64,000 bases of DNA, taken from the NCBI GenBank assembly GCA_041163625.1, contig JBEARB010000330.1:10194-74193 (forward strand), in the 5' to 3' direction. The notes under the pieces were generated by a model. That model was not told where the DNA came from. It was given only the letters and a program-made list of their open reading frames with translations, and did not search any database. Source of the stretch: Pseudomonadota bacterium (GTDB lineage Bacteria; Myxococcota_A; UBA9042). A program made the position numbers and the translations under genes. Each line of letters opens with the position of its first letter. Positions within the stretch are counted from its first letter, which is position 1. This document shows positions 13,893 to 64,000 of this stretch, one piece after another.

Positions 13893-14179
13893 ATTCAGAC
13901 TCCTGATGGGCGCGCCGCGGCAAACCACTCTCACCCCCGTCCTCGCCTCGGGACCGGTCGACGGAGGGCTCCCTTTCCCCCGGCGACACTATTGGCCTTC
14001 GGCACGCTGTGGCGCGACCTTCCCATCTTGGTAGAAGAGCGGTCCTCGCCGGATGCTAGGTGCCTTGCGCGGAGCGGTCAACAGCGGAGATCGCCAAGCC
14101 TGCAAGCGAATCTCGGGACGGGTTGCGCGCGGCCGGCGACCGTGACAAGCAAGCGACCCGATCCGCCCAGGAGCCACAC

Positions 14180-16195
14180 ATGCCCGCCTTCGATCTCGTC
14201 GCGCCCTTCCCGCCCGCGGGCGACCAGCCCGCCGCCATCGACGAGTTGATGCGCGGCCTGCAGCGCGGCGACCACTGGCAGGTCCTGCTCGGCGTCACGG
14301 GCTCGGGCAAGACCTTCACGATGGCCAACGTCATCGCCGCCTCGCAGCGACCGACGCTGGTGCTCGCGCCCAACAAGACCCTCGCGGCGCAGCTCCACGC
14401 CGAGCTCAAGAGCTTCCTGCCACACAACGCGGTCGAGTACTTCGTCAGCTATTACGACTACTACCAGCCCGAAGCCTATATCCCCTCAACAGACACCTAC
14501 ATCGAGAAAGACGCGCTCATCAACGAAGAGATCGACCGGATGCGGCACGCCGCGACCTTCGCCCTGCTCGAGCGGCGAGACGTCGTCATCGTCGCTTCGG
14601 TCTCCTGCATCTATGGTCTCGGCGCGCCGGTCGACTACTTGGCGATGCGGCTCGGTCTCGAGGTCGGGCAGGAGATCGGTCGACGCAAGCTGCTCGAACG
14701 TCTGGTCGAGATGCAATACGAGCGCAACGAGGTCGAGCTGACGCGCGGTCATTTCCGCGTCCGCGGCGACGTCATCGACGTGGTGCCGATCGGCGAGGAC
14801 GCCGAGGCCGTGCGTATCGCGCTCTGGGGCGACGAGATCGAGTCGCTCGAAATCATCGACCCGCTGCGTGGGCGCGTCCTGCGCAAGGTCGAGCGCGTGC
14901 ACATCTACCCGAGCTCGCACTTCGTGACGCCGGCGGAGGTGGTGGCGCGCGCACGCGAGACCATCGCCGTCGAGTTGCGCGAGCGATTGCAGGAGCTGCG
15001 CGAGGGGGGCCGCTTGCTGGAGGCCCAGCGCCTCGAGCAACGCACGATGTTCGACCTCGAGGCGTTGATGACGCGTGGATTCTGCCGCGGCATCGAGAAC
15101 TATTCGCGCCACCTGACCGGCCAGCAGCCCGGAGAGCCGCCACCGACCTTGCTCGACTACTTCCCCGACGATTGGCTCCTGATGATCGACGAGAGCCACG
15201 TCACGGTCTCGCAGGTCGCGGCGATGTTCCGCGGCGACCGCGCGCGCAAGGAGGTATTGGTCGGGCACGGCTTCCGGCTCCCCTCGGCGCTGGACAACCG
15301 TCCGCTGCGGATCGAGGAGTTCCTCGAGCGCGTGCGGCAGGGCGTGCTGATTTCGGCGACGCCGGGCGATTGGGAGCTCGAGCAGACCGGCGGCGTCGTG
15401 GTCGAGCAGGTGGTTCGCCCGACGGGGCTGCTGGATCCGGTGATCGAGGTGCGTCCGGTCGGCAGCCAGGTCGACGACTTGCTCGGAGAGATCCGCCTCC
15501 GCGCCGAGCGCGACGAGCGCGTCCTGGTCACGACGCTGACCAAGCGGATGGCCGAGAACCTGACCGAATACTACGCCGACCTGGGCGTGCGCGTGCGCTA
15601 CATGCACAGCGATATCGACACGCTCGAGCGCGTCGAACTGCTGCGCGGCCTGCGCGCCGGCGACTTCGACGTGCTGGTCGGTATCAACCTGTTGCGGGAA
15701 GGATTGGATCTACCCGAGGTCAGCCTGGTGGCGGTGCTCGACGCGGACAAGGAAGGCTTCCTGCGCTCGCGACGGAGCCTGATCCAGACCATCGGCCGCG
15801 CCGCCCGCAACGCCGAGGGCCGCGTCATCCTGTACGCCGACCGCATCACCGGCTCGATGCGCGAGGCGATCGACGAGACCGAACGCCGCCGCACGATCCA
15901 GGCGGCCCGCAACGCCGAACTCGGCATCGTGCCCAAGACGGTTCGCAAGGCGATCCACGGCACCGAGTTGCTGCAGGGCGCGAGTCGGACCGCTCACGAC
16001 GGCGGACCGCTCAGCGAGCAGGCGCTGCTGGAATCGGACGATCTCGCGACCCTGGACCGCAAAGACCTCGAGCGCCGCATCCAGGGCCTGCAGGCCGAGA
16101 TGAAGGCCGCGGCCGGAGCCCTGGACTTCGAGCGCGCGGCTGGGCTGCGCGACGAGATCCGCGACCTGCAGAAGCTGCTGCTCGCGCTCTCGTGA
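14180..16195 (+). CDS. uvrB: excinuclease ABC subunit B
   Basis: Start at MPAFDLV with AGGAG 7 nt upstream. Helicase motifs ([12 protein letters not shown]) and the UvrB C-terminal domain ([17 protein letters not shown]). 671 aa. Confidence 0.9.
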
Positions 16196-16223
16196 ACCGG
16201 CGAAGCCTCGGCGCCGGAGGGCT

Positions 16224-17684
16224 TCAGTCGACCCCGTCGATCTGCTCGAGGTCGAGGACCTCGGCGTCGAGGTAGTCGTCGATGACGATGTCGGGCGGCG
16301 CGCGGTCGCGGACGGCGACGATCTCGTCTTCGCCGAAGACCTCGAGATAGCGCGACCAGACGCCGGCACAGATGCGGTCGAAGGCACAGCCGCCACAGAG
16401 GTGCGCCGGCTTGACGCGTTCGGGGTCGGCGACCGCGCCGTCGGCGAAATCACCGTAGATGTCGAAGTGGTCGATGTATTCGGGGATCACGCACGGTGGC
16501 AGCGCGGCCGATTGGCTCGTCTCCACCCGCATGCCGGTGCGCCGGCCGAGCTCGAACGCCTCGGCGAAATAGGGCCGGCAATCGGTGAACGAGAGCGCCC
16601 ATTGCGGATTGAGCCAGGCGTTGCCGCGCGGCATCGCGTAACTGAACTGGAGGCGATCCAGCCGAGGGCCCCAGCGCTCCCAGCACGCCTGCGCGAAAGC
16701 CGGGACGTGCGCGAGGTTGGGCCGCATCACGACGCACGTCACCTTGACGCGGAAGCCGAGCTCGACGGCGCGATCGATGGCGTGGAGCTTGGCCGCGAGC
16801 CGGCCGCTGTCGGGCCGCTCGCGCTCCGGGTCCGGCAGCGTCAGGCCGCGGGCGAAGCGCTCCGCCAGCGGCATCGCCGGGACGTCGTGCGCGGCAGTGA
16901 GCAGATCCGAGGCCCGCGCCTCGAACGCGTGCAGCGAGAAGCCGATGCCGAGGCGGTCGCGATAGGGCAGCAGCGCCTCGAGCGCGCCGGGTTCGGCCAT
17001 CCGCACGCCGTTGGTCTGCACGATGATGTCGCGGGCCCCTCGCGCCGCCGCCAATGCCACCATCTCGGGCAACGCCTTGAGCAGCGTCGGTTCGCCGCCC
17101 GAGAAGATCACCTGGCGCAAGGCGCCCGCGGGCAGCCGATCGAGGATCGTGCGCAGCTTCTGCTTGCTGGTGACGAGGTTGCTGTTGCCCTCGGTGGCGT
17201 TGCAGAACACGCAACTCTCGTCGCAATGATCGGTCACGCGCAGGTAGAGCTTCTTGCCGCTGGTGATCTCGAGGTAGGCCGACGCCGGCGGCGCACGGAA
17301 ATAGCGCTGATCGAGGTCGGCCGGGGAGAGGCCCGCCGACGCGGCGACGGTCTCGACGCGGCGCCCGACCTCGGCCAACAGCGCCGTCGCCATGCGGTCG
17401 AAGCCCTCGCCACGGTAGCTGACGTTCCAGCGCGGAGTGCGCAGGTAGGTGTCCTGCGTCGGGTCGTGGTGGCGCAGCAGCACGTGGAGATCCCAGGGCT
17501 CGCCGTCGCGCTCGACCTGCAGGCAGATATGGTCGCCGTCGTGCGTCCAGCCGACGCAGCGCACGCGACCGACGTCGTCGCCGGCGCGCAGGTCGGCGGG
17601 CGCCGCGATCTCGTCGACGAAGCGGCTCAGGCGCGGGATGGCATCGGGATCCAGCGCCAGTACCGGTTTGGCGAGTCGCGACAT
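16224..17684 (-). CDS. radical SAM / SPASM-twitch-type enzyme with a ~130-aa N-terminal extension
   Basis: Radical-SAM cluster CDESCVFC followed by a GGEPTL motif. C-terminal Cys cluster (HLCGGCAFDRICAGVW). The N-terminal ~130 aa has no recognisable motif. Confidence 0.75.
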   Translation of the reverse strand: MSRLAKPVLALDPDAIPRLSRFVDEIAAPADLRAGDDVGRVRCVGWTHDGDHICLQVERDGEPWDLHVLLRHHDPTQDTYLRTPRWNVSYRGEGFDRMATALLAEVGRRVETVAASAGLSPADLDQRYFRAPPASAYLEITSGKKLYLRVTDHCDESCVFCNATEGNSNLVTSKQKLRTILDRLPAGALRQVIFSGGEPTLLKALPEMVALAAARGARDIIVQTNGVRMAEPGALEALLPYRDRLGIGFSLHAFEARASDLLTAAHDVPAMPLAERFARGLTLPDPERERPDSGRLAAKLHAIDRAVELGFRVKVTCVVMRPNLAHVPAFAQACWERWGPRLDRLQFSYAMPRGNAWLNPQWALSFTDCRPYFAEAFELGRRTGMRVETSQSAALPPCVIPEYIDHFDIYGDFADGAVADPERVKPAHLCGGCAFDRICAGVWSRYLEVFGEDEIVAVRDRAPPDIVIDDYLDAEVLDLEQIDGVD

Positions 17685-17767
17685 GAGCGAACGCTACCGA
17701 CCGGCTCGCGCCGCCGCAACCACGGGTCGCGCGAGGCGGTGCCCCAGACGGGAGGAGGACGCGACCG

Positions 17768-20542
17768 TCATCGCCGGACGGCGAACCAACTGGTGGGTCG
17801 AGCCGGCCCCAAGCGCACCCGGCGCAACAGCAGATCCAGCAGCAGCAGCGCGATGGCAGCGGCCACCAGCGCCGCCCAGAGCGGCTGCCACGTTCGGGTC
17901 GTGGCCTGCCCGCGCTCCCGCCAATCGGCCGGTTTGGCGGCATTCTGACCGCCGGTCGACTGAACCAACGCCTGCAGGCCGACGGCTGCACCGCGCGCGA
18001 TGCGGAGCTCGTCGGGGTACGGCCGCACGGCAGTCGCGCGTCCGCGCAGCATCACCGGCTTCTCCGGCGCGGCGCGCAACTCGGTGAGGACGTCGTAGGG
18101 ACCGAAGGCGCTCATCGAGACCGCGGCCTCGTAGCGACCCAGCGCGACCTCCTGCAGTCGAATCGCACGCGGCGCGCCATCAGGTGCACGAACCGTGGCC
18201 TCCGCGAGCAGCCCGCCGACGTGCTGATCGTCGACGATGGCGTCCAAAGCGATCCGCATCCGCTCGTCTTCCCGCGCGAGACGGACGCGGACCTCACCGG
18301 CCAAATCCTCGCGTTGCAGGTCACGCACGAGCTGGCGCGCGAGCACGGCGTAGCCCGGCCAATCGATCCAATCCTGCGCCCAGCGGTTTTTCAGGTCGCT
18401 GGTCCAGACCGAGACCTTGCCCAGGCCGAGACGCCACCGCACCAAGAGCGGCTGGCCGGTCGAGAGGCGCAAGATCTCCTCGGCGCCCCGCTTGACCTTG
18501 CTCGCCAGGAAGCCGCGCAGCGCCGGGGCCCGCGTGACGTCGAAGCCGCGCAACAGCTCGACGCGGCCCAATCCCGGGGCGAGTCGGGCGCGGACGCGCT
18601 TCTCGACCACCGTCTCGCCGCTGATCTCCTTGGTCTCGCGGACGAAGATGCGAGGCAGCGTCTCGGGTCGGTCGGTGAAATACGAGCGGCCGCCGCCGCG
18701 GTCGGCAATGGATTCGAGCATCGAGCGGTCGACCTCGGCACCGACGCCGACGGTCGTGACCGTCACGCCCGAGCGCCGCATCTGCCGGACGAGCGCGTCG
18801 ATGCCGTTGCGCGGCGCCTGGCCGTCCGAGAGCAAGATCACGTGCTTGACCTTGGCCCGCACGCGCTCGAGCTCCGCGGCGGCCATCGCGAGGGCCGGGT
18901 AGATATTGGTGCCGCCGCTGGCCGAGATGCTGCCGATGCCGGTGGCAATGCGATAGCGGTTGCCGGCGCGCTGCAGGCTGACAACGCGGCGCGGGGCGTT
19001 GTCGAAGGCGACCACGCCGATGCGATCCTCTTGGCCGAGCGCCTCGGCCGTCGCGCGTGCCGCTTCCTTGGCGAGTTCCATCTTCTCGCCCTGCATGGAG
19101 CCGGAGCGATCGAGCACCAGCATCATCGCGATCGTGGGCTGCTCGACGGCCGAATCGACCTCCATCCGCACCGGCAGCACGTGCTTGTCGAGCCAGGAGC
19201 CCTGCCAGCCACCCGAGCCGAGCGCGTCCTCACCGCCGACCATCAACAAGCCGCCGCCCTCTTCGACGTAGCGTCCGAGCGCGCGTTGCTCGGGGTCGGG
19301 CACGAGCGGGACGCCGGCGGGCGAGACGCGCGCGAGGTCCGACAAGATCACGGTCTGGTAGCGGGCCAAGGCGGCAGCGTCGCGGGGCAACGCGTCGGGG
19401 CCACGCAGGGTGACCTCGAAGTCGTCGGCCAGCGCGCTCGCGAGCTGCCGCCCCATCGCGGGGTTGCCCTCGACGAGCAGCACGCTCGGGCGCGCGGAGA
19501 CCACGACGCGCACGCGCATCGCGTTGTTGCTGGGGAAGCGGTCGCCGCCCGCCACCAAGGCGCAGTGCGCGCGCAGCTCGTGGGCACCTGCCTCGCGGAT
19601 GCGGGCCTCGCCGAGCTCGACGTCGCGGCGACCGGCACCGAGTTCGGCGGCGATGGGACCGAGGTGGACACCCTCGCCGTCGAGCTCGCAGCGCACCGTG
19701 GCCGCCGCCGTGCTGCGCAGCCGCAGCCGCACGGGGAAGGGCAGGTTCGCGCGCACCCGCTCGGGGACGTGCACCGCCTCGACGAGAAACTCCGCCGGCT
19801 GCTGCAGGGGGCCGAGGTCGCCGCGGTGCACACGGGCGCCGGCGCGACGCATCAGGGGGGCCAGACGCTGGGCGTCGCCGCGCGTCTCGGCGCCGTCGGA
19901 CCAGACGACGACGTGGGCGACGCGTCCCGGATCGAGGTGGCCCAGCGCGAGATCGAGCGCCGCCTCGAGGTCGGTGGCGCCCTGGCTCTGCGGATCGCGG
20001 GCGACCTGCAGCGGCGGCAGCGGCGTCGCTGCGTCCGCGTCGTCGGTGGGCGTCGGGGGCCACGGCAGCCGACGTGCGCCGGCGTCGAAGGCGATGACGT
20101 GCACCGACGCTGCCTCGCCCTCGGGGTCGTCGCGATGCGCCTGTACGTCGGCGGTGATCGCCGTCAGCGCCTGCGCCAGCGCCGCGGGCGGCATCGACTC
20201 GCTTCGGTCCACCAGATGCACGATGGATGCTTGCCGCGGTCGCTCCTGCCGGCTGCGCGGCTCGGTCGCGGCGAGCACCAGCGCCGCGATCGCGAGCATT
20301 CGCGCCACTGCGCCGAACGCGGCCTGCCAGCGCGGCAGGTCGCCGATCGAACCGAGCGCCAGCAGCGGCACCAGCCAGCATGCCAGCAGCCCCCACAGCC
20401 GCTCGGGGTGCGCCAACTCGACGCCACCCGCCGCGAGCGCGCCGAGCCACGCCGGCGCTTGCTCGCGCGCCCACAGCGCGAGGCCGGCTCCGAGCGCGAG
20501 CCAGACGAGCCCGCTGACTACGGTGGCGACGCGCCCGCTCAC
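17768..20542 (-). CDS. BatB-like membrane protein with two VWA domains
   Basis: The GTG start at 20540-20542 overlaps the upstream stop (GTGA). N-terminal TM helices. Two MIDAS-containing VWA domains (VHLVDRSESM; LVLDRSGSMQGEKM). C-terminal TM helix. Confidence 0.7.
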   Translation of the reverse strand: MSGRVATVVSGLVWLALGAGLALWAREQAPAWLGALAAGGVELAHPERLWGLLACWLVPLLALGSIGDLPRWQAAFGAVARMLAIAALVLAATEPRSRQERPRQASIVHLVDRSESMPPAALAQALTAITADVQAHRDDPEGEAASVHVIAFDAGARRLPWPPTPTDDADAATPLPPLQVARDPQSQGATDLEAALDLALGHLDPGRVAHVVVWSDGAETRGDAQRLAPLMRRAGARVHRGDLGPLQQPAEFLVEAVHVPERVRANLPFPVRLRLRSTAAATVRCELDGEGVHLGPIAAELGAGRRDVELGEARIREAGAHELRAHCALVAGGDRFPSNNAMRVRVVVSARPSVLLVEGNPAMGRQLASALADDFEVTLRGPDALPRDAAALARYQTVILSDLARVSPAGVPLVPDPEQRALGRYVEEGGGLLMVGGEDALGSGGWQGSWLDKHVLPVRMEVDSAVEQPTIAMMLVLDRSGSMQGEKMELAKEAARATAEALGQEDRIGVVAFDNAPRRVVSLQRAGNRYRIATGIGSISASGGTNIYPALAMAAAELERVRAKVKHVILLSDGQAPRNGIDALVRQMRRSGVTVTTVGVGAEVDRSMLESIADRGGGRSYFTDRPETLPRIFVRETKEISGETVVEKRVRARLAPGLGRVELLRGFDVTRAPALRGFLASKVKRGAEEILRLSTGQPLLVRWRLGLGKVSVWTSDLKNRWAQDWIDWPGYAVLARQLVRDLQREDLAGEVRVRLAREDERMRIALDAIVDDQHVGGLLAEATVRAPDGAPRAIRLQEVALGRYEAAVSMSAFGPYDVLTELRAAPEKPVMLRGRATAVRPYPDELRIARGAAVGLQALVQSTGGQNAAKPADWRERGQATTRTWQPLWAALVAAAIALLLLDLLLRRVRLGPARPTSWFAVRR

Positions 20543-22539
20543 AGCGTCCTCCGACGTTGGTAGAGCGCCCACTCGAGCAGCAACAACCCGGCCACGGCGA
20601 CGACCAGGATGGTCCACGCCGGCCACGGCGAGCGCGGCGCGGCGTCGTGCGCGGCGCGGGCGCGGGGAGCCCAGGCGGCCGCGTCGGGCGAGACGCGACT
20701 CGGCTGCTCGGTGGCCGGCAGGATCGTCGGTCGCGCGATCTCGAAGCCTTCATGGCTGCGCCAGACGTGGATGCCCTGCACTTCGCTGCTCGCGAGCAGC
20801 GCGTCGTCGCTCGCGAAGGCGGCGCGCGCGGGCGTCCCGGGCTCGGTCCAGGTCCAGCGCTCGGCTGCGACCGGAAGCCCCAGCGCCCAGGGCCGACCGA
20901 CCTCGAGCGGCCCGACGACGGCCTCGTCTTCGCCCGCCAGCCACTCGACGGCGTTGCTCACCAGCAGCGGCAGGAAGTAGCGGCCGCCGAGGTCGGTCTC
21001 CAGCAGGTCCAACCCGAAGACCAGGCCGCGCACGCCGGCGTCCGTAGCGTAGGCCAAGGCGACGCCACCGCGCTCGCGCAGGAGCACCCGCGCACCGGTC
21101 GGCGGCGTCAACGGACGGACTTGGTCGACGTTGCCGTCCTGCAGCGAGAGACCGCGGACCACGGGATGTTCGTCGTCGCCCACCGCCAGCTCGCCGGCGC
21201 TGCGGGGCTCGGCGTCGCCGGCGGCGCCGTGCTGTCCGGCGCGCAAATCGAAGCGCCACGTGGGCGTGCCGTCGGGCGCCGGGGCGTCGACTTGGTCCAG
21301 GACCACGACGTCGATGCCGTGACCGAGCCGGCGGCTGCGGGCGAAATTGGCGGGCTGGTAGGCGTCGGGCGCAAGCCGGCGGACGTCGAAGCCGTCGTTG
21401 GCCAGGAGCGCGGCCTCGAGGAAGAGGTTGCCGCGGCCGACGAGCAGCACGCCCACCTTGCGGCGACGCGCCGCGACACCGAAGCCCCAATCGTCGTAGG
21501 GGGCGACGTCGCGCCAAGCGGCGCCGTCGGCGGGGCGGACCTGCACCGCGAAGCGACCGGGGGCCAGCGTGACGTCGGCGAACGCGACGCTCTGCACGGC
21601 CCGCGGTGCCAGTTCGACGACCTGCTCGGCGACGACGCTCTCGGCGCGCGCGAAGTCCACCGGGCCCTGGCCTTCGCGATCGGCCGAGAGCAGCACGCGC
21701 AGCCGGGTGGCGACGCCGCGATCGTTGCGGATCCGCGCCGTCACCACGCCGCGACCGGGGTCGGCTTCGGCAGCGCGGACACCGACGCGCTCGACGGCGG
21801 CGTTGTCGACGAGGCGGCCTTCGGCGGCGGCTTCGGGGCCCACGCGCCGCACGCGAATCGGGACGCCTCGCATCGACTCGGGCACGACGAAGCCGGTGGT
21901 ACTCGGGCCGCCGTCGGTGACCACGACCACGCGCGGCATCGTGCGCTCACGGACCGCATCGACCGCCGCTCGCAGCGCCCGCTCGAGGTCCAGGCCGGCA
22001 TCGGTGCTGCGCAGACCGGCGATCGCTGCGCGGACGGTCTGCGCCTCGTCACTCCAGGGGGCCTGTGTCCGCGGCGCGGCGGCGGCGGCGACGACCAGGA
22101 AGCGTTCGCGCGGCAACGCGTCGGCGACGATCTCGTCCAGCGCTTCCTGCGCGAGCTCGAGCCGGGTGCGCGGGAGCAGACCGGGCCCGGGATCGCCATC
22201 GACGGTCGCCATCGTCGCGGAGACGTCGACCAGCAGCACGGTATGGGTCGCCGGCGGCTGCTGGCGCTCCCGCAGCGCGCGCAGCCCCAGCGGCCCTTCG
22301 GCCAACGCGGCGAGCAGCCCGCTCGTGCAGGTCGCGAGGAAGAGCCACGAAAAGAACCGGCGCCATCGACGCCCGATGCGGCGCGACTCGGCGCGCTCGA
22401 GTACGGTGCGCCAGAGCGCGCCGAAGGGCACCGCCACCTGGCGACGGCGCGGCTCGAGCAGATAGAGCAGCGTCAGCACGGCGAGCGCGCCTGCCGCCCA
22501 CGGCCACCAGGCCTGCAGGGTATCGAAGGGGGCGATCAC
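20539..22539 (-). CDS. BatA-like VWA-domain membrane protein
   Basis: The GTG start overlaps the DUF58 stop (GTGA). N-terminal double-TM domain typical of the aerotolerance BatA N-terminus. VWA MIDAS (VLLVDVSATM). C-terminal TM helix. Confidence 0.7.
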   Translation of the reverse strand: MIAPFDTLQAWWPWAAGALAVLTLLYLLEPRRRQVAVPFGALWRTVLERAESRRIGRRWRRFFSWLFLATCTSGLLAALAEGPLGLRALRERQQPPATHTVLLVDVSATMATVDGDPGPGLLPRTRLELAQEALDEIVADALPRERFLVVAAAAAPRTQAPWSDEAQTVRAAIAGLRSTDAGLDLERALRAAVDAVRERTMPRVVVVTDGGPSTTGFVVPESMRGVPIRVRRVGPEAAAEGRLVDNAAVERVGVRAAEADPGRGVVTARIRNDRGVATRLRVLLSADREGQGPVDFARAESVVAEQVVELAPRAVQSVAFADVTLAPGRFAVQVRPADGAAWRDVAPYDDWGFGVAARRRKVGVLLVGRGNLFLEAALLANDGFDVRRLAPDAYQPANFARSRRLGHGIDVVVLDQVDAPAPDGTPTWRFDLRAGQHGAAGDAEPRSAGELAVGDDEHPVVRGLSLQDGNVDQVRPLTPPTGARVLLRERGGVALAYATDAGVRGLVFGLDLLETDLGGRYFLPLLVSNAVEWLAGEDEAVVGPLEVGRPWALGLPVAAERWTWTEPGTPARAAFASDDALLASSEVQGIHVWRSHEGFEIARPTILPATEQPSRVSPDAAAWAPRARAAHDAAPRSPWPAWTILVVAVAGLLLLEWALYQRRRTL

Positions 22540-23468
22540 CCGAGGAAGCCTCCGAGGCGGAAGATCTTCATCACGACCTCGTCGAAGGGGGTGGCGACGT
22601 CGACCCGTAGCGCGCGGGCGCCGACCTCGCGCGCCGCGGATTCCACGCGCGCCGAGAGCTCCTCGAAGACCTCCCGGTAGGTGGCGACGATCTCGGGCGT
22701 GAGCCAGATCTCCTGCCGCTCGCCGGTCTCGACGTCGACCAGCGTCAGGTCGCCGTAGATCTCGGCGCGGAACAGCCGCTCGTCGGCCAGCTGCAGCACC
22801 ATCGGCTCGTACCCGCGGGCGGCGAGGTCGCGCAGGCCGTCGCCGAGGCCGTCCGGGTCGTAGAGGTCGGAGATCAGCACGACGAGCCCCCGCCGCGGCT
22901 TGAAGCGCAGGAAGTCGCGGATCGAGTCGTGGATCGCGGTGCGACCGGCGGGCTCGAGCGCCGAGAGGGTACGCAGGATGCGGAAGAGCTGCGCGCGGCC
23001 GCGCACCGGGCGCTCGGGGCGCGCGCGACCGTCCGCCATCGGCGCGACCGAGACACGGTCGAGGTTGCCGAGCGCGATGTAGGCGAGCGCGGCGGTGATC
23101 TGCAAGGCACGATCGAACAGGCTCGGTTCACCGGGCGGCGCCATCGCCATGGACGGGCTGCGGTCGAGCAGGAAATAGACCGAGAGGTCCTCTTCCTCCT
23201 CGTATTGGCGCAGGAGCATCCGTTTGGTGCGACCGTAGACCTTCCAATCGAGGTGGCGCAGGTCGTCGCCGGGGCTGTAGTCGCGATGGTCGGCGAACTC
23301 GATGCCGCCGCCGATCTTCTTGCTGCGCCGCGCCGCCCGCTGCCCCGAGGAGGCCATCCGGCGCGCGAGCAAGGTCAGGTGCTCGATGCGGCGCAGGAAC
23401 GCCGCGTCGAAGAGATCGTCGCGGATCCCGGCGTGCGCGCCCCCGGCGGCGGGCCGCGACTCAGCCAC
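22536..23468 (-). CDS. DUF58-domain protein (MoxR-associated)
   Basis: DUF58 signature (ADHRDYSPGDDLRHLDWKVYGRT). 8-nt overlap with the moxR stop. Confidence 0.8.
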   Translation of the reverse strand: MAESRPAAGGAHAGIRDDLFDAAFLRRIEHLTLLARRMASSGQRAARRSKKIGGGIEFADHRDYSPGDDLRHLDWKVYGRTKRMLLRQYEEEEDLSVYFLLDRSPSMAMAPPGEPSLFDRALQITAALAYIALGNLDRVSVAPMADGRARPERPVRGRAQLFRILRTLSALEPAGRTAIHDSIRDFLRFKPRRGLVVLISDLYDPDGLGDGLRDLAARGYEPMVLQLADERLFRAEIYGDLTLVDVETGERQEIWLTPEIVATYREVFEELSARVESAAREVGARALRVDVATPFDEVVMKIFRLGGFLG

Positions 23469-24507
23469 CGGCGACCTGCTTGCCGACCTCTTGCAGGATG
23501 GCGTCGAGGACCTTGTCGCTGGCGACGCCGTCGGCTTCGGCGTCGAAGTTCAGCAGCACGCGATGGCGCAGGACCGGGCGCGCGAGCGCCTGCACGTCTT
23601 CGCGCGCGGCGTTGGGGCGACCGTCGAAGAGCGCGCGCATCTTCGCGCCCAAGATCAGCGCCTGCACCGCACGCGGGCTCGCGCCGGCGCGCAGGTATTG
23701 GCGGGCGGCGTCGGCGCCACCGTGGGTGGCCTCGACCACACGAATGGCGAGGTCGACGACGTGGTGGGCGATCGGCACGCCGAGCGCCAGCCGCCGCACG
23801 GCCAGGATATCGTCGCCGTGCAAGATCGCGCCGATCTCGTGCTGCTCGGCCTGCAGCGTGCGCGCGACGATCTCGTGCAGGTCCTGCCGGCTCGGGAAGG
23901 GCACGTCGAGCTTGAACATGAAGCGGTCGAGCTGCGCCTCGGGCAACGGGTAGGTGCCTTCCATCTCCAGCGGGTTCTGCGTCGCCATCACGAAGAAGGG
24001 CTTGGGCAGTTGGAGCGTCTCGCGCCCGATGGTCACGCGGCCCTCGGCCATCGCCTCGAGCAACGCCGATTGGGTCTTGGGCGTGGCGCGGTTGACCTCG
24101 TCGGCCAGCAGCAAGTTGGTGAAGACCGGGCCCTTGCGGAGTTCCAGACCACGGCCGCCGCGGCCGTCCTCGGCCAGCATGTGCGTGCCGACGATATCGG
24201 TCGGCATCAGGTCCGGGGTGAACTGCACGCGCGAGAAGTCGAGATCGACCGCCGCGGCGAGCGTACGCACGAGCATGGTCTTGCCGACACCCGGTACGCC
24301 CTCGAGCAAGATGTGGCCGCCGCAGAACAGGCCGATCAGCGCCCCCTCGACCACGGCGTCCTGCCCGACGATGACCTCGCCGACACCGGCGCGCAGGGCG
24401 CCCAAGCGGTCCCGGACCCAGGCGAGCGCGTCGGCGAGGCGAGCCTCGTCGGCGAGCGCCGCTTCGATGTCGGGGCGCGCCCCTGTCGAATCCGAAGCCT
24501 TGGTCAT
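23461..24507 (-). CDS. MoxR-family AAA+ ATPase
   Basis: Start at MTKASDST; the ATG overlaps the upstream stop (ATGA). Walker A (GVPGVGKT), Walker B (LLADEVNRA) and the MoxR motif ATQNP. Confidence 0.85.
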   Translation of the reverse strand: MTKASDSTGARPDIEAALADEARLADALAWVRDRLGALRAGVGEVIVGQDAVVEGALIGLFCGGHILLEGVPGVGKTMLVRTLAAAVDLDFSRVQFTPDLMPTDIVGTHMLAEDGRGGRGLELRKGPVFTNLLLADEVNRATPKTQSALLEAMAEGRVTIGRETLQLPKPFFVMATQNPLEMEGTYPLPEAQLDRFMFKLDVPFPSRQDLHEIVARTLQAEQHEIGAILHGDDILAVRRLALGVPIAHHVVDLAIRVVEATHGGADAARQYLRAGASPRAVQALILGAKMRALFDGRPNAAREDVQALARPVLRHRVLLNFDAEADGVASDKVLDAILQEVGKQVAGG

Positions 24508-26828
24508 CGTGTGCTCCTCTGCGTTTGCGCCGCGCGCGGTCGGATCAGCTCGTAGTAGCGGCGAACCATCGCCTTGCGTCCCGGCGGCAGGGACTCCTTC
24601 TCGAGCATCTCCTGCGCTACTTCCGCATATTCCGAATAGACCTCGCGCCACCCGGTGCGGGCGAAGCCCTTGCGAGCCGCGTCGACGAAGACGTCCTTGG
24701 TGCTCGGCCCTTCGCCGTGCTTGCCGCGAACCTGCTCGGTCCGGGCCGTGCCCTTGCGGGCGCCCTTGCCCTCGAGGTCGCGGCCGTCCTCGTGGCCGTA
24801 GGTCTTGCCGCGCCCACCGTCGCCGCCGCCCTGCTGCTGGAGCTGTTGGCCATCGGCCATCTGCTGCATCCGGCGGTCGTCGGAGAGCTCGCCCTGGCCG
24901 AGCCGCGTGGAGCGCTTGCGGCCCGAGCCTCCGGGCTGCGAGGGGCCACCGGACTCGCCCTGGCCGGCGGCTTGCCGGCGCCGCGCGGCGGCGCGTTCCT
25001 TGGCGGCCGCCTCGGCAGCCGCTCGGCCCTGCTTGCCGGCGCCGTCGCGTGGCTCTCCGCGCTGGCCGGACTGCGCGTCGCGTCCCTCTTCCTCGCCTTG
25101 CTTTCCGCCGCCCTCCTCGCCGCGCTGGCCCTTGGACTGCTGACCGCGGGCTCGGTCGGCAAAGTCGCGGCGCTGCGAACGCCCGCGCTCGCCGGCGCGG
25201 CGGAGGGCTTGGCGCAGGTCGCGCAGCCGTCCGTCGCCGATCCGGCGCGCCTGGCGCTCGCGTTGGCCCTGGCCCTGTCGACGCATCTCCTGCGCCGCCC
25301 GCTGCATCTGCTGGCGGACCTGTCCGGCGAGCGCCTTGCGCTGCTGCTGGCGTCGCGCCTCGCCCTCGGCACCGCCGCCCTTCTGTCGATCGATGCGGCT
25401 ACGCTCCTGCTGCATCCGACGCATCTCGTCGGCCGCTTGGCGAGCACCGCGCTCGAGACGCTGCAGCTGCCGTCCGGCCCCGGCGACGTCGCCGTGCTCG
25501 CGGCGCAACGCGTCCATCGCCCGGCGGGCGTTGTGCAGTCGGCGGTTCTCGGCCGGGGTCAGGCCGCCCTGTTGCTGGCGCTTCTGCTCGAGCCGGCGAA
25601 TGCGATCGGCGAGTTGCTGGAACTGCTTGGGCACCTCCTTGGCCCCGAGCGCTTTGGCCAGCTTCTCCGCCGCCTTGACCCAACCCTCGAGCTCCTTGTC
25701 GCTCATGTCGCGGTCGGCGAGCTTCTCGAGCGCCTTGGCCATCAGACCGAGGTCGCCCTTCTTGGCGGCGCGCTCGAGTTCGTCGCGCGTGGCGCCCTCG
25801 GGGGCCGCCTCGATCGCCTTCTCGACCGCCTTGGAGAGCGCCTTCTGTACCGCCCGATCGCGATCACGCTCGGCCGCGGCGGCGGCCTCGCGCGAGACGG
25901 GCTGATTCGGATCGCCGCTGGGATCACCGCTGCGAGCCTGCTCGGGTGGCTCGGGGCGCTCGGCCTCGAGCTCCGCGAGCTTGGCGAGCGCTGCGCGGCG
26001 ATCGAGCTTGCCGCTCTCGACGTCCTCGAGGACGCCTTTGACCCGATGCAGCCACGCGCGGGTCGGTGCGTCATCGACCTGGGCGGCCACGTCGGCGATC
26101 AGCTCGGCGTCCGCGCGCAGCAACTCGAGGGCATCGGCGCCCAGCAGCTCGGCCGCGACGACGACGCCGGCGTGGCCTGGGGGTAGGTCGAGGAGCAGGC
26201 CGTCGGCCCGCTGGCCGTCGATGCGGTCGCCGAGGAGCCACACCTGCGGCACGACCAGCGCCAGCATCGCGGCGACGGCGCCGGCAACGACCCAGCCGAG
26301 CCCGGCAGGCCGCGGCATCGGCAGCAGCGCGACGAGATCGAGCCCGGCAGCGGCGGACTCGGCGTGTCGCGCTTGCAGCATGGCGAACGGATCGTCGCGC
26401 CCCTGGCGCGCCAAGTCGAGCGCCGTGCTGATGTGGTCACCGCCACCGACCCGCAGATCCAACGCTCCCGCAGCGGCCAACCAACCCGGTCGGCGCCCCA
26501 TCGCCCAGGCGACGCCGAGCAGGCCCGCGATCGCGAGCACCAGCGCGGCCCCCACATCCCAGGCAGCCGGCCACAGCCCTGCCCGGGCCGCGAGCGCCCA
26601 GCCCGCGTAGGCCAGCATGGCCGGGGCCGCGACGTACGCGAGGCGGCCCAGCGCGCCGGCCCACCAGAGCCGACGTCGGGCGCGGCGCACCACGTCGATC
26701 ACCGCCGAGACCCGCGCGCGGCGCGGTGCCGACAGATGGACGGGACGCAGCGTGGCGGGAAGTGGGGTGGTGGTGGCTCGGCTCAACGCGATCTCCGGGC
26801 CGACGCAGCCGGCGTGGGGGCAACCCAC
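24504..26828 (-). CDS. membrane protein with a long R/Q/E/G-rich charged low-complexity region (hypothetical)
   Basis: First gene of the Bat-like string. About 4 N-terminal TM helices. A ~450-aa charged low-complexity region (RRQQQRK..., QGQGQRERQARR...). A conserved-looking C-terminus (TGWREVYSEYAEVAQEMLEKE). Start uncertain. Confidence 0.5.
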   Translation of the reverse strand: MGCPHAGCVGPEIALSRATTTPLPATLRPVHLSAPRRARVSAVIDVVRRARRRLWWAGALGRLAYVAAPAMLAYAGWALAARAGLWPAAWDVGAALVLAIAGLLGVAWAMGRRPGWLAAAGALDLRVGGGDHISTALDLARQGRDDPFAMLQARHAESAAAGLDLVALLPMPRPAGLGWVVAGAVAAMLALVVPQVWLLGDRIDGQRADGLLLDLPPGHAGVVVAAELLGADALELLRADAELIADVAAQVDDAPTRAWLHRVKGVLEDVESGKLDRRAALAKLAELEAERPEPPEQARSGDPSGDPNQPVSREAAAAAERDRDRAVQKALSKAVEKAIEAAPEGATRDELERAAKKGDLGLMAKALEKLADRDMSDKELEGWVKAAEKLAKALGAKEVPKQFQQLADRIRRLEQKRQQQGGLTPAENRRLHNARRAMDALRREHGDVAGAGRQLQRLERGARQAADEMRRMQQERSRIDRQKGGGAEGEARRQQQRKALAGQVRQQMQRAAQEMRRQGQGQRERQARRIGDGRLRDLRQALRRAGERGRSQRRDFADRARGQQSKGQRGEEGGGKQGEEEGRDAQSGQRGEPRDGAGKQGRAAAEAAAKERAAARRRQAAGQGESGGPSQPGGSGRKRSTRLGQGELSDDRRMQQMADGQQLQQQGGGDGGRGKTYGHEDGRDLEGKGARKGTARTEQVRGKHGEGPSTKDVFVDAARKGFARTGWREVYSEYAEVAQEMLEKESLPPGRKAMVRRYYELIRPRAAQTQRSTR

Positions 26829-26921
26829 GAGATGCGGCGCCTCTTCCCGATTTCGACGCGCGGGAAGCCGATCGGATTCAGCACGAGCCGCAAGAGGTCG
26901 TCAAACCGGACGCCTCGACGC

Positions 26922-26968
26922 AAAAATGCCGATCCGCCCCGGCGCGGTCTGCGTCCGGGGCTGATCGG
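26922..26968 (-). terminator. intrinsic terminator-like hairpin
   Basis: A 14-bp GC-rich stem with one mismatch (ccgatccgccccgg / ccggggctgatcgg) and a 12-nt loop, followed on the minus strand by TTTTT. It lies ~50 nt downstream of the 54-aa gene. Confidence 0.4.
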
Positions 26969-27013
26969 CGTGGACTCGTCTGCTGTCCGGCGGTTGCCGG
27001 ACCGTCGACCGGG

Positions 27014-27178
27014 CTAGCGGCGGACGGTATCGAGCGAGATGGCCTCACCGAGGGCGGCCTCGAGCACCTTCTCGCTCTGAATGCGGTGCGCGCGACGGAT
27101 CTCGGCCTTGCGGCCAGCGCCGGCGGTGCGTCGCTTGTGCTTACGAATCTTGCGGGTCTGTTGAGTAGGCGAAGCCAT
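27014..27178 (-). CDS. small basic protein, 54 aa (hypothetical)
   Basis: MASPTQQTRKIRKHKRRTAGAGRKAEIRRAHRIQSEKVLEAALGEAISLDTVRR. SD GGAGGA 7 nt upstream of the ATG. Own downstream hairpin. Confidence 0.5.
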   Translation of the reverse strand: MASPTQQTRKIRKHKRRTAGAGRKAEIRRAHRIQSEKVLEAALGEAISLDTVRR

Positions 27179-27231
27179 GGTGGTCCTCCGTCGGCAAGGG
27201 CAGCGGGTTGTGCACGACTCGCGTCCGTGCG

Positions 27232-27283
27232 TCAAGTGCGAAAGCGAAACGCCGGCCGAGGGACGGGGTCCCCCTGCCGGCGT
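27232..27283 (-). terminator. terminator-like compound hairpin
   Basis: An 8-bp stem (acgccggc / gccggcgt) enclosing a ggggtcccc sub-palindrome, followed on the minus strand by a U-rich tract (ttcgctttcgc). Immediately downstream of the 91-aa gene. Confidence 0.4.
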
Positions 27284-27309
27284 CCGCCTCAGGTCGTTCG
27301 CGACGCGAA

Positions 27310-27585
27310 TCAGATCTTGCGCAGCTCGTCGATGATCTCGGCCTTGATCCGAGCCTCGTCGCTGACCGAGAGCGCGCCCAGGGCGCGTGCCTCGATCGCC
27401 GCGAGGGCGGCGCGGGTCTCGGCGATCTCCTGACCGCGGAACTCGAGCTCGGCGTCCGGCGCGAGCGCGAGACCATGGCGCATACGCACCACCTTCTCCT
27501 CGACGTCGGTGAGCCCGAGCTGCTGCAGGCTGCGTTCGGTCGTCACGCGCGTTTGCGTGGCGGTCCGTGTGCGGGTCCTCGTCAC
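27310..27585 (-). CDS. stand-alone sigma-70 region-4-like small protein
   Basis: GTG start with AAGGGAG 7 nt upstream. LTDVEEKVVRMRHGL...LEFRGQEIAETRAALAAIEARALGAL aligns with sigma-70 region 4 (LTxREEKVLRMRFGI...LEEVG...TRERIRQIEAKALRKL). The recognition-helix arginines are replaced by Ala/Leu. Confidence 0.5.
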   Translation of the reverse strand: MTRTRTRTATQTRVTTERSLQQLGLTDVEEKVVRMRHGLALAPDAELEFRGQEIAETRAALAAIEARALGALSVSDEARIKAEIIDELRKI

Positions 27586-27787
27586 GGTACACTCCCTTTG
27601 CGGCCACGAAGACCGCAGGTTCGGGCGAAACCGCCCGCCAGCAAAGCGCGCGCAGCGCCTCGCCGAAGATTCACGCTACCCGATCCCGGACAAACCGCAA
27701 TTTTTCGATCGTTTCTGCTGCGAACTCGATCACTTGAGCCCAAGATCGGAAGATCGTGTGGAGATCTCGGGGCGGTCCGAACGGCGC

Positions 27788-29140
27788 TCAGGCCTCGCCG
27801 GGCGGTCGCTCCAGTCCGAGCTTCCGAACCACGTACTCGAGGCTCTTGCGATGCAACCCGGTGGCTCGTGCCGCCGCCGACACGTTCCAGCCGTGATGCT
27901 CGAGGGCGCGTTCCCAATAGGCACGCTCGAATGCATCGACCAGCCGAGCCTTGGCATCCTTGAAGGGCAAGTCGAAGCGGACCGGCACGCCGCCCTCTCC
28001 GTGGACGATCGGGGCGTCGGCGGTCTGCACGTCGACCTCGAGCTCGCGACCGGACGAGAGCACGGCGGCCCGCTCGATGGCGTTGCGCAGCTCGCGGATA
28101 TTGCCGGGCCAGGGGTGGCTCTGCAGGCGCTGCATCATCTCGTAGCCGATGGTCATCGGTCGCGTCTTGCCGTCGCGCCGGGCCGCCTCCTCGAGGAAAT
28201 GCTGCGCGAGCATCGGGATGTCCTCGGTGCGGCGCCGCAGCGGCGGCAGCGCCACGCGGACGACGTTCAGCCGCCAGTAGAGGTCTTCGCGGAAGGAGCC
28301 TTCCTTGACCATCTGTCCGAGATCGCGATTGGTCGCGGCGACGATGCGCACATCGACCCGGCGCCGATCGTTGCTGCCGACCGGGCGAACCTCGTGCTTC
28401 TCGAGCGCGCGCAGGAGCTTCGGCTGCAGGTCGAGGTCGAGCTCGCCGATCTCGTCGAGGAAGAGCGTCCCGCCGTCGGCCTCGGCCATCGCGCCGACGC
28501 GCGAGGCGACCGCGCCGGTGAACGCGCCGCGGAGATGCCCGAAGAGCTCGCTCTCGACGAGATTCGGTTGCACGGCCGAGCAGTCGAAGACGACGAACGG
28601 TCCTGCAGCGCGACGGGAGTGGCGGTGCAGCGCCTCGGCGACCAACTCCTTGCCCGTCCCCGACTCGCCCTCGATCAGGACCGTGACCTCGGTCGGAGCG
28701 ACCTTGCCGAGGTGAGCGAAAATCTCGCGCATCGCCGGCGCGTCGCCGAGCAAGTCGCCGAAGCGACGCTCACGTGAGAGCGCCACTTCGTGGGTCTCGG
28801 CCAGGGGTTCGACGAGCAGCTCGACCTGACCGACGCGCAGGGTGGTGCGATCGGTGAGCAGCCCCTCGACCAGGCGGCATCCGCCCATCCAGGTGCCGTT
28901 CTTGCTGCCGAGATCGCGGATTCGGAAGCCGCCGCGCTCGCCCTCGATCTTGAGGTGGTTGCGGGAGACCGACGAGTCCCCCACGACCACGTCGTTATCT
29001 GGCGCGGAGCCGACGTAGAGCAGGCGGCGCTCGAAGACCGTCGGCGCTGTGCCACGGCCACCGACCACGCTGATGCGCAGTCGCGGCAGAGTCAGCCGTT
29101 CGGGCAGAGCTGAGGTCAGGGTGCGGGTGGCGTCGTGCAT
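27788..29140 (-). CDS. sigma-54-dependent transcriptional activator with N-terminal FHA domain
   Basis: Start at MHDATRT. FHA motifs (YVGSAPDNDVVVGDSSVSRNHLKIE...GSKNGTWM). Sigma-54 AAA+ domain (GESGTGKE, GAFTGA, FLDEIGEL, ESELFGH). C-terminal Fis-type HTH. 450 aa. Confidence 0.85.
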   Translation of the reverse strand: MHDATRTLTSALPERLTLPRLRISVVGGRGTAPTVFERRLLYVGSAPDNDVVVGDSSVSRNHLKIEGERGGFRIRDLGSKNGTWMGGCRLVEGLLTDRTTLRVGQVELLVEPLAETHEVALSRERRFGDLLGDAPAMREIFAHLGKVAPTEVTVLIEGESGTGKELVAEALHRHSRRAAGPFVVFDCSAVQPNLVESELFGHLRGAFTGAVASRVGAMAEADGGTLFLDEIGELDLDLQPKLLRALEKHEVRPVGSNDRRRVDVRIVAATNRDLGQMVKEGSFREDLYWRLNVVRVALPPLRRRTEDIPMLAQHFLEEAARRDGKTRPMTIGYEMMQRLQSHPWPGNIRELRNAIERAAVLSSGRELEVDVQTADAPIVHGEGGVPVRFDLPFKDAKARLVDAFERAYWERALEHHGWNVSAAARATGLHRKSLEYVVRKLGLERPPGEA

Positions 29141-29169
29141 CGCTCGGGAGCATGCGCGCCCGGGCGACG

Positions 29170-30960: not shown

Positions 30961-30979
30961 GAGTGGCCTCCGCGCCCGC

Positions 30980-31837
30980 TCAGGCGACCGCGAGTCGGGC
31001 CGTGAGCCAGTCTCGCAGCGCAGCGAGCGGCCGGTCGCGCTCGCCGGCGGGCTCGTTGAAGAGCTCGTGGTAGAAGCCCTCGAAGACCTCGATGGTGCGG
31101 TCATCGGCGGCGACGCTGGCGAAATAGCGCTGGCCGACCTCGGGGTCGACGACCTGGTCGCCCGTCCCGATCAACGCGAGCAGCGGCACGTCGACGCGGA
31201 GCGGTGCCGCCAGGACATGCTGCTGCGCGGCCAGGAATTCGGCCCCCCAGCGGGTGGTGCCGGCGCCGAAGATCGCGGGATCCGACTCGTAGTCGCGGAC
31301 CGAAGCCGGGTCGCGGCTGATGTGCGACGCCGGGATGCCGACCGGCAACGCGACCGTCGGCAGCAGGCGCGAGAGCGTCTTCGCGGCGACGACCTTCCAG
31401 CCCGGAACCTCGACCGATGCGGCGAGCGCGGGATTCGAGAGCACGATTCCCGCCACCGGCAACGCGCGCTCACGCAAGGCATACGAGACCACCAAGCCCC
31501 CCTGCGAGTGCCCGAGCAGGTAGGGCACACGACCGGCCTCGGCGCGGACATGGTCGATGACCTGTCGCAGATCGGCAGCGTAGTCGGCGAAGGCGTCGAC
31601 GTGACCGCGCCGGCCACCCGAGGCACCGTGGCCACGCGCGTCGTACAGGAAGGTGTCGATGCCGGCGGCCGACATCGCCTCGACGAGGTTGCCGTACCGC
31701 CCCATATGCTCGGCGAAGCCGTGATGGACGACCAAGGTCGCGGCCGAGTCGGCGACGCGGTTCCAACGCCAAGCGAGACGCAAGCCGTCGCGGGCGACGA
31801 GTCGCCCTTCACGGGTTTCGATCGAGGTGGTGCTCAT
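30980..31837 (-). CDS. alpha/beta hydrolase (lysophospholipase / monoacylglycerol-lipase-like)
   Basis: Start at MSTTSIETREG with GGAG 5 nt upstream. Nucleophile elbow GHSQGG. HGxxE and a C-terminal FYHELFNE motif. Confidence 0.75.
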   Translation of the reverse strand: MSTTSIETREGRLVARDGLRLAWRWNRVADSAATLVVHHGFAEHMGRYGNLVEAMSAAGIDTFLYDARGHGASGGRRGHVDAFADYAADLRQVIDHVRAEAGRVPYLLGHSQGGLVVSYALRERALPVAGIVLSNPALAASVEVPGWKVVAAKTLSRLLPTVALPVGIPASHISRDPASVRDYESDPAIFGAGTTRWGAEFLAAQQHVLAAPLRVDVPLLALIGTGDQVVDPEVGQRYFASVAADDRTIEVFEGFYHELFNEPAGERDRPLAALRDWLTARLAVA

Positions 31838-31983
31838 GGGCGCTCCGCATGGCCCGGGTCCGGGGCAGCGGGAGGGTAGGACGCGACCGAGCCCGCGGCA
31901 AGACGCGTTGCGGGGGGCCGCCGCATGTTGCAGGATCGCGGACGCAGCCGGCAGCATCCGGCACAAGCCCACGGATTCGCCTC

Positions 31984-36413: not shown

Positions 36414-36422
36414 AGTCCGCGC

Positions 36423-39453: not shown

Positions 39454-39522
39454 GTCGGTAGCGACAACGGCCGGGTCCGGGCATGCTCGCCATCGCGCCC
39501 GTGGCCGGCGCGAGGAGGCAGG

Positions 39523-47210: not shown

Positions 47211-64000
<16,790 letters not shown>

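Follow-up and report, generated by a model that had tools for sequence, protein, structure and literature searches.

Operons that combine genes for a MoxR-proper ATPase, a DUF58 protein and VWA proteins are among the most widespread bacterial AAA+ systems still without a mechanism. What does such an operon do, and on what does its ATPase act? We ask this of five consecutive open reading frames (ORFs), g1 to g5, called at 17768-26828 on the minus strand of a 64,000-nucleotide (nt) stretch of contig JBEARB010000330.1 (assembly GCA_041163625.1, positions 10,194 to 74,193), referred to below as the window. The genome is labelled Pseudomonadota bacterium and placed by GTDB in Myxococcota_A (UBA9042). 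The operon is of a known kind, and the locus in the window, ordinary in itself, adds one more copy to the dozens of nearly identical ones that public genomes already contain. Comparison of these copies reveals a fixed unit of five genes. Its products most likely form a complex in the inner membrane with a role at the cell envelope, of the kind of Rhizobium cmdA-D or Bat. We put the probability of this reading at roughly 0.55.

Conservation of the five-gene order

How far does the arrangement extend beyond the window? One genome per species was scanned with an alignment of g5, and the six-frame ORFs of 87 loci (numbered with an L) were labelled with hidden Markov models and phmmer. The order g1, MoxR, DUF58, g4, g5 is kept in contigs with g1 homologs of 62%, 42% and 40% identity, and recurs in contigs of Sandaracinaceae and Kofleriaceae that were found through g5. 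Fifty-seven loci have a MoxR gene preceded by 2.2 kb of sequence or more, and in 53 of them a g1 homolog could be detected. In 52 loci this homolog sits upstream of MoxR, and the Pirellulaceae locus L071 has it downstream of g5. Loci carrying g1 belong to the Myxococcota, Burkholderiales, Gammaproteobacteria, Poribacteria, Gemmatimonadota, Acidobacteriota, Verrucomicrobia and Planctomycetes, and the carriers that can be named include Sorangium, Enhygromyxa salina, Lujinxingia vulgaris, Polyangiaceae, Kofleriaceae, Longimicrobiales and Methylacidiphilales. All told, no fewer than eight phylum-level groups share the five-gene order.

Two points of the original prediction, which was made from the window alone, are settled by this survey. 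It had described the leading gene as an addition to the bat operon of Bacteroides; the occurrence of g1 homologs in nearly all informative loci and in many phyla therefore identifies it as the core first gene of the unit and not a local addition. It had also named a gene set split apart in close relatives as a finding that would speak against an operon, and the five genes occur together in close and distant relatives alike.

Conservation of gene order can of course arise from lineage synteny only, in which case five co-oriented genes would have nothing functional in common. Within the lineage the flanking genes (UvrB, an FHA-sigma54 activator, a Ser/Thr kinase and a hydrolase) are syntenic as well, so that synteny alone can persist. 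Across phyla, however, the same five families appear in the same order where all flanking genes differ, and their stop/start overlaps are conserved. The cross-phylum conservation of the five genes therefore effectively refutes the idea that they are functionally unrelated.

Gene boundaries and junctions

The window has a guanine-plus-cytosine (GC) content of about 72%, and that of the module is the same as that of its surroundings. All five genes lie on the minus strand: g1 at 24504-26828 (774 amino acids (aa), GTG start), g2 at 23461-24507 (348 aa, ATG start), g3 at 22536-23468 (310 aa, GTG start), g4 at 20539-22539 (666 aa, GTG start) and g5 at 17768-20542 (924 aa, GTG start). All five ORFs have homologs elsewhere and are therefore real genes. 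The ATG of g2 lies within the stop region of g1 (cacgATGAcc, a 4-nt overlap), the g2/g3 junction reads ccgGTGGCTGAgtc with an 8-nt overlap, and both g3/g4 (cggGTGAtc) and g4/g5 (gctGTGAgc) overlap by 4 nt. Direct reading of the junctions and Pfam searches thus bear out the original account of five genes with these coordinates, their domain identities and the overlaps ATGA, GTGGCTGA, GTGA and GTGA.

Shine-Dalgarno motifs of the GGAG type precede the starts of g2 and g5 (AGAGGAG and GGAGGA). The start of g5 is placed where it is because the GTGA overlap sets it, and it fits the N-termini of homologs. For g1 the start is uncertain by 14 codons: a TTG at 26786, which would give 760 aa, is favoured at least equally to the annotated GTG at 26828 by an N-terminal alignment with 14 homologs and by a GGAG motif.

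Stop/start overlaps are common in operons, and what is above chance here is their conservation, not the overlaps as such. Among related loci, 38 of 60 have a start candidate with a 4-nt or 1-nt overlap at g3/g4, and 48 of 63 have one at g4/g5. Overlapping candidates occur at g1/g2 in only 14 of 54 loci and at g2/g3 in only 14 of 59 (12 with 4 or 1 nt, two longer); all four counts are heuristic and represent upper bounds. The overlaps indicate translational coupling, which would be strongest and best conserved for g3-g4-g5, and their frequency at g3/g4 and g4/g5 suggests that coupling of the membrane subunits has been conserved. The tight stoichiometric co-translation that had been read into the overlaps goes further than this, as coupling is no proof of a fixed stoichiometry. 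The last junction is also not always tight: g4 and g5 are separated by approximately 3 kb or more in five loci from Poribacteria and Marinacidobacterales (L066, L068, L079, L080 and L085).

The transcription unit is likely to begin within the 185 nt upstream of g1 (26829-27013, minus strand). At 26943-26928, 3' of the preceding small gene, lies a terminator-like hairpin with a T-run, and a weak -35/-10-like pair (TTGACG, 17 nt, CTGAAT, about 26906-26878) can be discerned by eye 5' of g1; a sigma-70 consensus scan found nothing upstream of g1 in this region of 72% GC. Control through sigma-54 by the FHA activator encoded upstream was considered and rejected, since a scan for TGGCAC-N5-TTGC with at most two mismatches gave no match in 26830-27800, and sigma-54-like sites across the window are at chance level (65 against 58.7 +/- 7.5 expected). 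A riboswitch or leader RNA at g1 or between the genes was likewise discarded after an Rfam search of 15500-28500 returned nothing at E<=0.1.

Domain architecture of the five proteins

The second gene encodes the ATPase. Its product matches AAA_3 (5.4e-62, 207.9 bits against a cutoff of 27) and AAA_lid_2 (2.2e-15, 56.6 bits against a cutoff of 22.7), with intact Walker A (GVPGVGKT at residue 70) and Walker B (LLLADE at residue 132) motifs. The nearest solved relative is the MoxR protein of Cytophaga hutchinsonii (2R44; 3.4e-78 over residues 30-342). Together with the DUF58 and VWA genes directly downstream, as expected of the MoxR-proper type, these matches assign g2 to the MoxR-proper AAA+ ATPases. 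The g3 product is a DUF58 protein (PF01882; 6e-32, 111 bits against a cutoff of 23.4) that also gives a weak VWA_2 match; it has a VWA-like fold with a DRSPS MIDAS motif (a metal ion-dependent adhesion site), whose DxSxS residues are invariant in 64 of 64 homologs. Neither g2 nor g3 contains transmembrane or hydrophobic segments.

A MoxR ATPase next to VWA proteins also brings to mind conflict or anti-phage systems of the MoxR-vWA ternary type, in which the ATPase and the VWA protein would sense invasion and trigger an effector. Such systems are called immunity modules in the Pfam family description, and the Pfam family bpMoxR does match g2 (2.5e-11). At 43.5 bits this match stands against 208 bits for AAA_3, no beta-propeller or effector domain was found with Pfam, and PADLOC returned weak P-loop matches to g2 and generic viperin-like core matches to the radical-SAM protein encoded next to the operon. 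Membership in a defence system thus has no support from PADLOC. The conserved chromosomal synteny across the whole lineage, which is not that of a variable island, and the unremarkable GC content of the module also argue against it, and we regard a role in defence as very improbable. A search of annotated plasmids for copies of g5 gave two partial VWA matches only.

The last two genes code for membrane proteins with large VWA-containing domains. The g4 protein starts with a BatA-type transmembrane hairpin that encloses an Arg-rich loop, continues from about residue 100 with a VWA domain (VWA_2, 1.2e-14 in Pfam; MIDAS motif DVSAT) and about 400 residues without a family, and ends with a transmembrane helix at 641-659. 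The Pfam model for the BatA N-terminus reaches 17.4 bits on g4, below its cutoff of 25.9, and more in relatives. The MIDAS residues of g4 are well kept among 61 homologs, with the Asp in 60, the first Ser in 59 and a Ser or Thr at the last position in all 61.

The g5 protein is more elaborate. Three N-terminal transmembrane helices are followed by a first VWA domain (about 95-241, MIDAS motif DRSES), a beta-sandwich (252-331), a GATase1-like domain (about 341-745) into which a second VWA domain is inserted (471-641, MIDAS motif DRSGS), another beta-sandwich (753-840) and a C-terminal transmembrane helix (889-908). Pfam detects VWA (2.7e-28), VWA_2 in two stretches and, split in two by the second VWA domain, GATase1_like (PF07090; 1e-10, 42.1 bits against a cutoff of 27). 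Sequence matches in the PDB comprise 3SOZ at 385-470 and VWA chains at 473-661, and the AlphaFold2 model has a mean predicted local distance difference test (pLDDT) score of 83.8. All 85 homologs examined keep the MIDAS residues D112, S114, S116 and D216 of the first domain and D478, S480, S482, T545 and D573 of the second; the mapped metal ligands end with the DxSxS stretch in g4 and include, in the first g5 domain, the later Asp but not the later Thr. A lack of MIDAS motifs had been put forward as a finding that would refute the prediction, and all four VWA-type domains (one each in g3 and g4, two in g5) turn out to keep the conserved MIDAS residues.

The first gene stands apart, with no Pfam match even at E<=10 and no NCBIfam match. 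Its product has an Arg-rich N-terminus, transmembrane helices at about 57-82, 90-110 and 175-193 with a conserved 64-aa segment between the second and the third, long charged helices at 225-560, a low-complexity stretch rich in Gly, Gln and Arg at 561-700, and a conserved C-terminal three-helix domain at about 705-765 (...LPPGRKAMVRRYYELIRPR). This C-terminal domain is also found in the 716-aa and 749-aa proteins encoded upstream in the operons of Sandaracinaceae and Kofleriaceae. An AlphaFold2 model with a mean pLDDT of 74 is all-alpha and shows long helices, disorder in the Gly/Gln/Arg-rich stretch and, at the C-terminus, a small bundle of three helices. Compared with the PDB by Foldseek, the model found only generic helical bundles at E>=0.5, so that no function could be assigned from the fold. 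The adenine-thymine (AT) skew of the window falls to -0.277 at 24001-26000, where g1 encodes its charged region rich in Arg, Gln and Glu; the codon composition of this low-complexity sequence is probably the cause.

How unusual is this protein? An identical 774-aa entry exists in the protein database, from a metagenome-assembled genome (MAG) labelled Pseudomonadota bacterium, and a word-index search retrieved 15 homologs, the closest of which come from MAGs of uncultured Myxococcota or 'Deltaproteobacteria'. A profile built from close homologs and searched against 1.84 billion cluster representatives yielded 2962 of them at E<=1e-3, of which 722 also pass E<=1e-10; most have 500-750 aa and match in the N-terminal membrane region as well as in the C-terminal domain. 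No family was found above threshold in 39 diverse members or in the proteins at the g1 position of other phyla. As judged from these searches, g1 is a member of a large family without a Pfam or NCBIfam model. The candidates for an assignment were only sub-threshold DUF4175 matches and coiled-coil noise. Like DUF4175/TIGR02302 proteins, g1 combines N-terminal transmembrane helices with a long low-complexity C-terminal region, and some distant family members reach E-values of 1e-5 to 8e-6 with DUF4175 (21.7-24.2 bits against a cutoff of 27.3). In contrast, the conserved C-terminal domain of g1 lies outside these sub-threshold matches, and DUF4175 was found neither in g1 nor in 14 close homologs at E<=10; at most, a remote relationship to DUF4175 (PF13779) may exist.

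Membrane topology and proposed function

Where do the bulky domains of g1, g4 and g5 reside? We derived topologies from transmembrane segments predicted by hydropathy and from counts of Lys and Arg, both in the proteins of the window and as family means; members of a family agree in their segments and in their positive-inside pattern. The N-terminus of g1 has eight Lys/Arg and one Asp/Glu, the loop between its first two helices has no positive charge, and the sequence after the third helix is net acidic. This pattern suggests an N-terminus inside, a cytoplasmic 64-residue insert between the second and third helices, and a C-terminal region of about 580 residues outside. In g4 the N-terminus is free of Lys and Arg, the 32-residue loop has 11 and the C-tail three among its seven residues, pointing to an N-terminus outside, an Arg-rich loop inside, a large domain outside and a C-tail inside. 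Similarly, the g5 C-tail with six Lys/Arg and no Asp/Glu would be inside and the large domain outside. MoxR and DUF58 are predicted to be cytoplasmic. A periplasmic location of the large domains of g1, g4 and g5 is favoured because of this charge distribution and because of the experimentally mapped BB0173, a BatA-type protein with the BatA layout of hairpin, VWA domain and C-terminal transmembrane helix, whose VWA domain has been placed in the periplasm.

A membrane complex of this type agrees with the genes cmdA-cmdD of Rhizobium leguminosarum (RL3499-RL3502; Vanderlinde et al. 2011, J Bacteriol 193:2684), an operon described as 'broadly conserved' that encodes MoxR, DUF58 and two membrane proteins. 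Its mutants show a dysfunctional envelope and altered cell morphology and, in the literature searched, provide the only genetics on a similar four-gene core; bab1_1573-1576 is given as the predicted Brucella counterpart. The genes g2 to g5 follow the same order of MoxR, DUF58 and two membrane proteins with overlapping junctions. They differ in that cmd is described as four genes, whereas the module in the window has five with g1 leading. On gene order, cmdA-D would be the best functional analogy for the module.

How could such a complex work? We infer three steps. The MoxR hexamer would use DUF58 as a cytoplasmic adaptor of the VWA type, comparable to other MoxR ATPases with a VWA partner; ATP would be spent to assemble or remodel g1, g4 and g5 through their cytoplasmic loops and other cytoplasmic elements; and g1, with its long charged helices and small conserved C-terminal domain, would act as a TolA-like tether or spacer. 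The periplasmic MIDAS sites of g4 and g5 might in turn bind metal-dependent envelope ligands. TolA is anchored in the membrane at its N-terminus, continues with a long charged helical stretch and ends in a small globular domain, a layout suited to spanning the periplasm. The resemblance of g1 is an architectural analogy only: similarity in sequence or fold to TolA was not detected, and g1 differs by its three transmembrane helices and cytoplasmic insert. By analogy with cmdA-D, loss of the module would be expected to cause defects in envelope integrity or cell shape and not the loss of one enzyme.

A link to peptidoglycan is hinted at by a large gene for an SLT lytic transglycosylase. In several relatives it is the gene immediately upstream of g1, and 11 loci have it within the flank (L002, 7250-9865; L004, 3241-6075; L006, 553-2601; L003, L005, L009, L010, L013, L015, L016 and L025). 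In L004 the gap between the SLT gene and g1 is only 5 nt.

Several observations weigh against an envelope complex. The SLT gene is restricted to some Myxococcota and occurs neither in the window nor in L001. Homologs of g5 (E of about 1e-113 to 1e-142) are found without an adjacent MoxR or DUF58 gene in seven loci (L019, L026, L031, L040, L065, L067 and L078), with none within 6-10 kb upstream, and g5 can therefore function apart from the ATPase. The topology comes from hydropathy and charge counting only, the region of g1 that is very rich in Arg, Gln and Gly would make an unusual export substrate, and the reading offers no route by which an ATPase in the cytoplasm would act on domains in the periplasm. 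The likeness to cmdA-D is one of gene order, the literature searched contained no experiment on any member of the exact five-gene type, and the phenotypes of Bat and MoxR proteins elsewhere are heterogeneous, including oxidative and heat stress as well as virulence.

A more ambitious version of the envelope complex can be drawn as a widespread trans-envelope machine that has so far gone unrecognised, in which a cytoplasmic motor of MoxR and DUF58 energises the TolA-like, periplasm-spanning g1 and the two MIDAS-bearing VWA/GATase1-like proteins to monitor or remodel the peptidoglycan or outer-membrane layer, and whose motor might in this lineage also serve a pair of DUF4159 and VWA/GATase1-like proteins encoded without MoxR about 9.6 kb away. 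We offer it tentatively, as a possibility to which we would give rather low odds.

Relation to the Bat operons

The original prediction had called the operon Bat-like. At the level of domains this holds. The Bat operons (Bacteroides fragilis BatI/Bat, Borrelia bb0170-bb0176, Leptospira batABD) share MoxR-proper, DUF58 and the combination of a BatA-type hairpin with a MIDAS VWA domain, and the VWA domain of g5 superposes on Bacteroides BatB (3IBS) and on a B. fragilis aerotolerance-related protein (4JDU) with target-normalised template modelling scores of about 0.72-0.74, a generic VWA similarity only. The module is not a canonical Bat operon, as it lacks BatC, BatD and BatE and scores below the cutoffs of the curated BatA models.

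Does it nevertheless confer aerotolerance, that is, the tolerance of oxygen or oxidative stress proposed for the Bat operons of Bacteroides, Porphyromonas, Riemerella and spirochaetes? The common core of MoxR, DUF58 and VWA membrane proteins would allow it, as would the structural similarity of g5 to BatB, the weak BatA N-terminal match of g4 with its stronger counterparts in relatives, and the stress phenotypes of batA and moxR mutants. However, a Pfam search found no TPR, SH3 (BatC/BatE) or BatD family in the five proteins or the radical-SAM protein, and the module is surrounded by UvrB, small proteins and a sigma-54 activator. The NCBIfam model VWA_BatA_Lepto reaches 26.2 bits on g5 against a cutoff of 380. 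BatA and BatB have about 330 aa; g4 and g5 are two to three times that size and carry additional domains, namely a second VWA domain and a GATase1-like domain in g5 as well as beta-sandwiches, and g1 has no Bat counterpart. The module is also common in obligately aerobic lineages such as Sorangium, and a Leptospira study reportedly questioned the oxidative-stress role of Bat proteins, which we count against this explanation. We therefore consider a canonical aerotolerance operon quite unlikely.

The client question and neighbouring genes

In the pairs RavA-ViaA, CbbQ-CbbO, NorQ-NorD and CoxD-CoxE the VWA partner is soluble and an identifiable client enzyme is encoded nearby. The original prediction had drawn on CoxD/E, NorQ/D and CbbQ/O, and counted a trailing radical-SAM enzyme as part of the system. 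Is the module then a dedicated chaperone that inserts a cofactor or metal into one client, be it the radical-SAM enzyme or another neighbour? As in those pairs, a MoxR ATPase gene lies beside genes for MIDAS-bearing VWA-type partners, and ATPase and adaptor are likely to cooperate; the DUF58 protein is soluble and could be this adaptor. A radical-SAM gene (16224-17684, minus strand, 486 aa) follows 83 nt downstream of g5, and as no terminator-like site lies in the gap it is perhaps co-transcribed with g5 here. Its product matches Radical_SAM (4.6e-14, 53.4 bits against a cutoff of 29.5) and contains the CX3CX2C cluster motif CDESCVFC at residues 154-161; among NCBIfam subfamilies even the best, HxsC4 with 56.6 bits against 500, stays far below its cutoff.

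The distribution of this gene among the loci excludes it as a component of the operon. It adjoins g5 in the window and in L002, L009 and L010 only, that is, in three of the 87 related loci, and is absent from L004 and from L001, the closest relative with a long contig, where uvrB comes directly after g5. Orthologs with 49-58% identity occur in unrelated neighbourhoods, one of them in the same sample as L004, on a different contig from the operon of that sample that lacks the gene. Nor does any other neighbour take its place: when flanking ORFs within 6 kb on each side were clustered for 61 loci, no family was present in more than seven and each shared family was confined to one clade. Neither a sixth conserved gene nor a client came out of this clustering, and the five genes therefore make up the whole conserved unit, with no client alongside. 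Moreover, in contrast to the known pairs, only DUF58 is a soluble partner here, while g4 and g5 are membrane-anchored with VWA domains that are predicted to be periplasmic. The client analogy thus finds little to attach to, and a chaperone for one enzyme is unlikely; the envelope complex is the reading that we prefer.

On the far side of the radical-SAM gene, the convergent uvrB (14060-16195, plus strand) closes the region. Upstream of the operon, a small, very basic protein of 54 aa (MASPTQQTRKIRKHKRR...) is encoded at 27014-27178 (minus strand), between the sigma-54 activator and g1; it belongs to no Pfam family and has homologs of 53-54 aa at the same position in L001, L002, L004 and L009. 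Genes for the FHA-sigma54 activator, a Ser/Thr protein kinase and an alpha/beta hydrolase follow at 27788-31972 (minus strand), in an order that is kept upstream in L001 and L002; in L004 this holds for the activator. In L078, one of the loci in which g5 stands without MoxR, the g5 homolog is preceded by a gene for a 620-aa protein without a family and followed by genes for a CobW GTPase and a WD40 protein.

Other features of the window

A second, related gene set without MoxR occupies 36414-40749 on the plus strand, about 9.6 kb from g1. It begins with a gene for a DUF4159 protein (36414-37244, 2.5e-35), which has a counterpart at the same relative position in L001 and L002. The next gene encodes a paralog of g5 (37144-39453) with a VWA domain (MIDAS motif DASRS) and a GATase1-like domain and no second VWA domain; its product is 27% identical to g5 over 387 aa (E 3e-9). 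A HEAT-repeat protein is encoded at 39454-40749. This set may share the MoxR/DUF58 motor with the five-gene module.

At its end the window contains part of a giant ORF of more than 5595 codons (47211-63998, minus strand) that runs past the boundary. The GC content of this region is 63-66%, compared with about 72% for the window, and its AT skew is strongly negative. Scans of the two ends gave matches to Dicty_CTDC repeats, MopE-type Cu-binding motifs, Big_9 and PQQ_2. In L089 a similar giant protein with Dicty_CTDC and Laminin_G is encoded two genes from the ortholog of the radical-SAM gene.

Implications for the family

The literature searched contained nothing on variants with GATase1-like or DUF4159 proteins or on the g1 family. 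New here is that the variant carrying the GATase1-like domain is a fixed five-gene unit and that its first gene comes from a large family for which neither Pfam nor NCBIfam has a model. New as well is that no client gene travels with the module and that its bulky domains are probably periplasmic. The working hypothesis for these operons thereby moves from an enzyme-specific chaperone to an envelope machine, and culturable carriers such as Sorangium, Enhygromyxa salina and Lujinxingia vulgaris are organisms in which the envelope idea could be examined.

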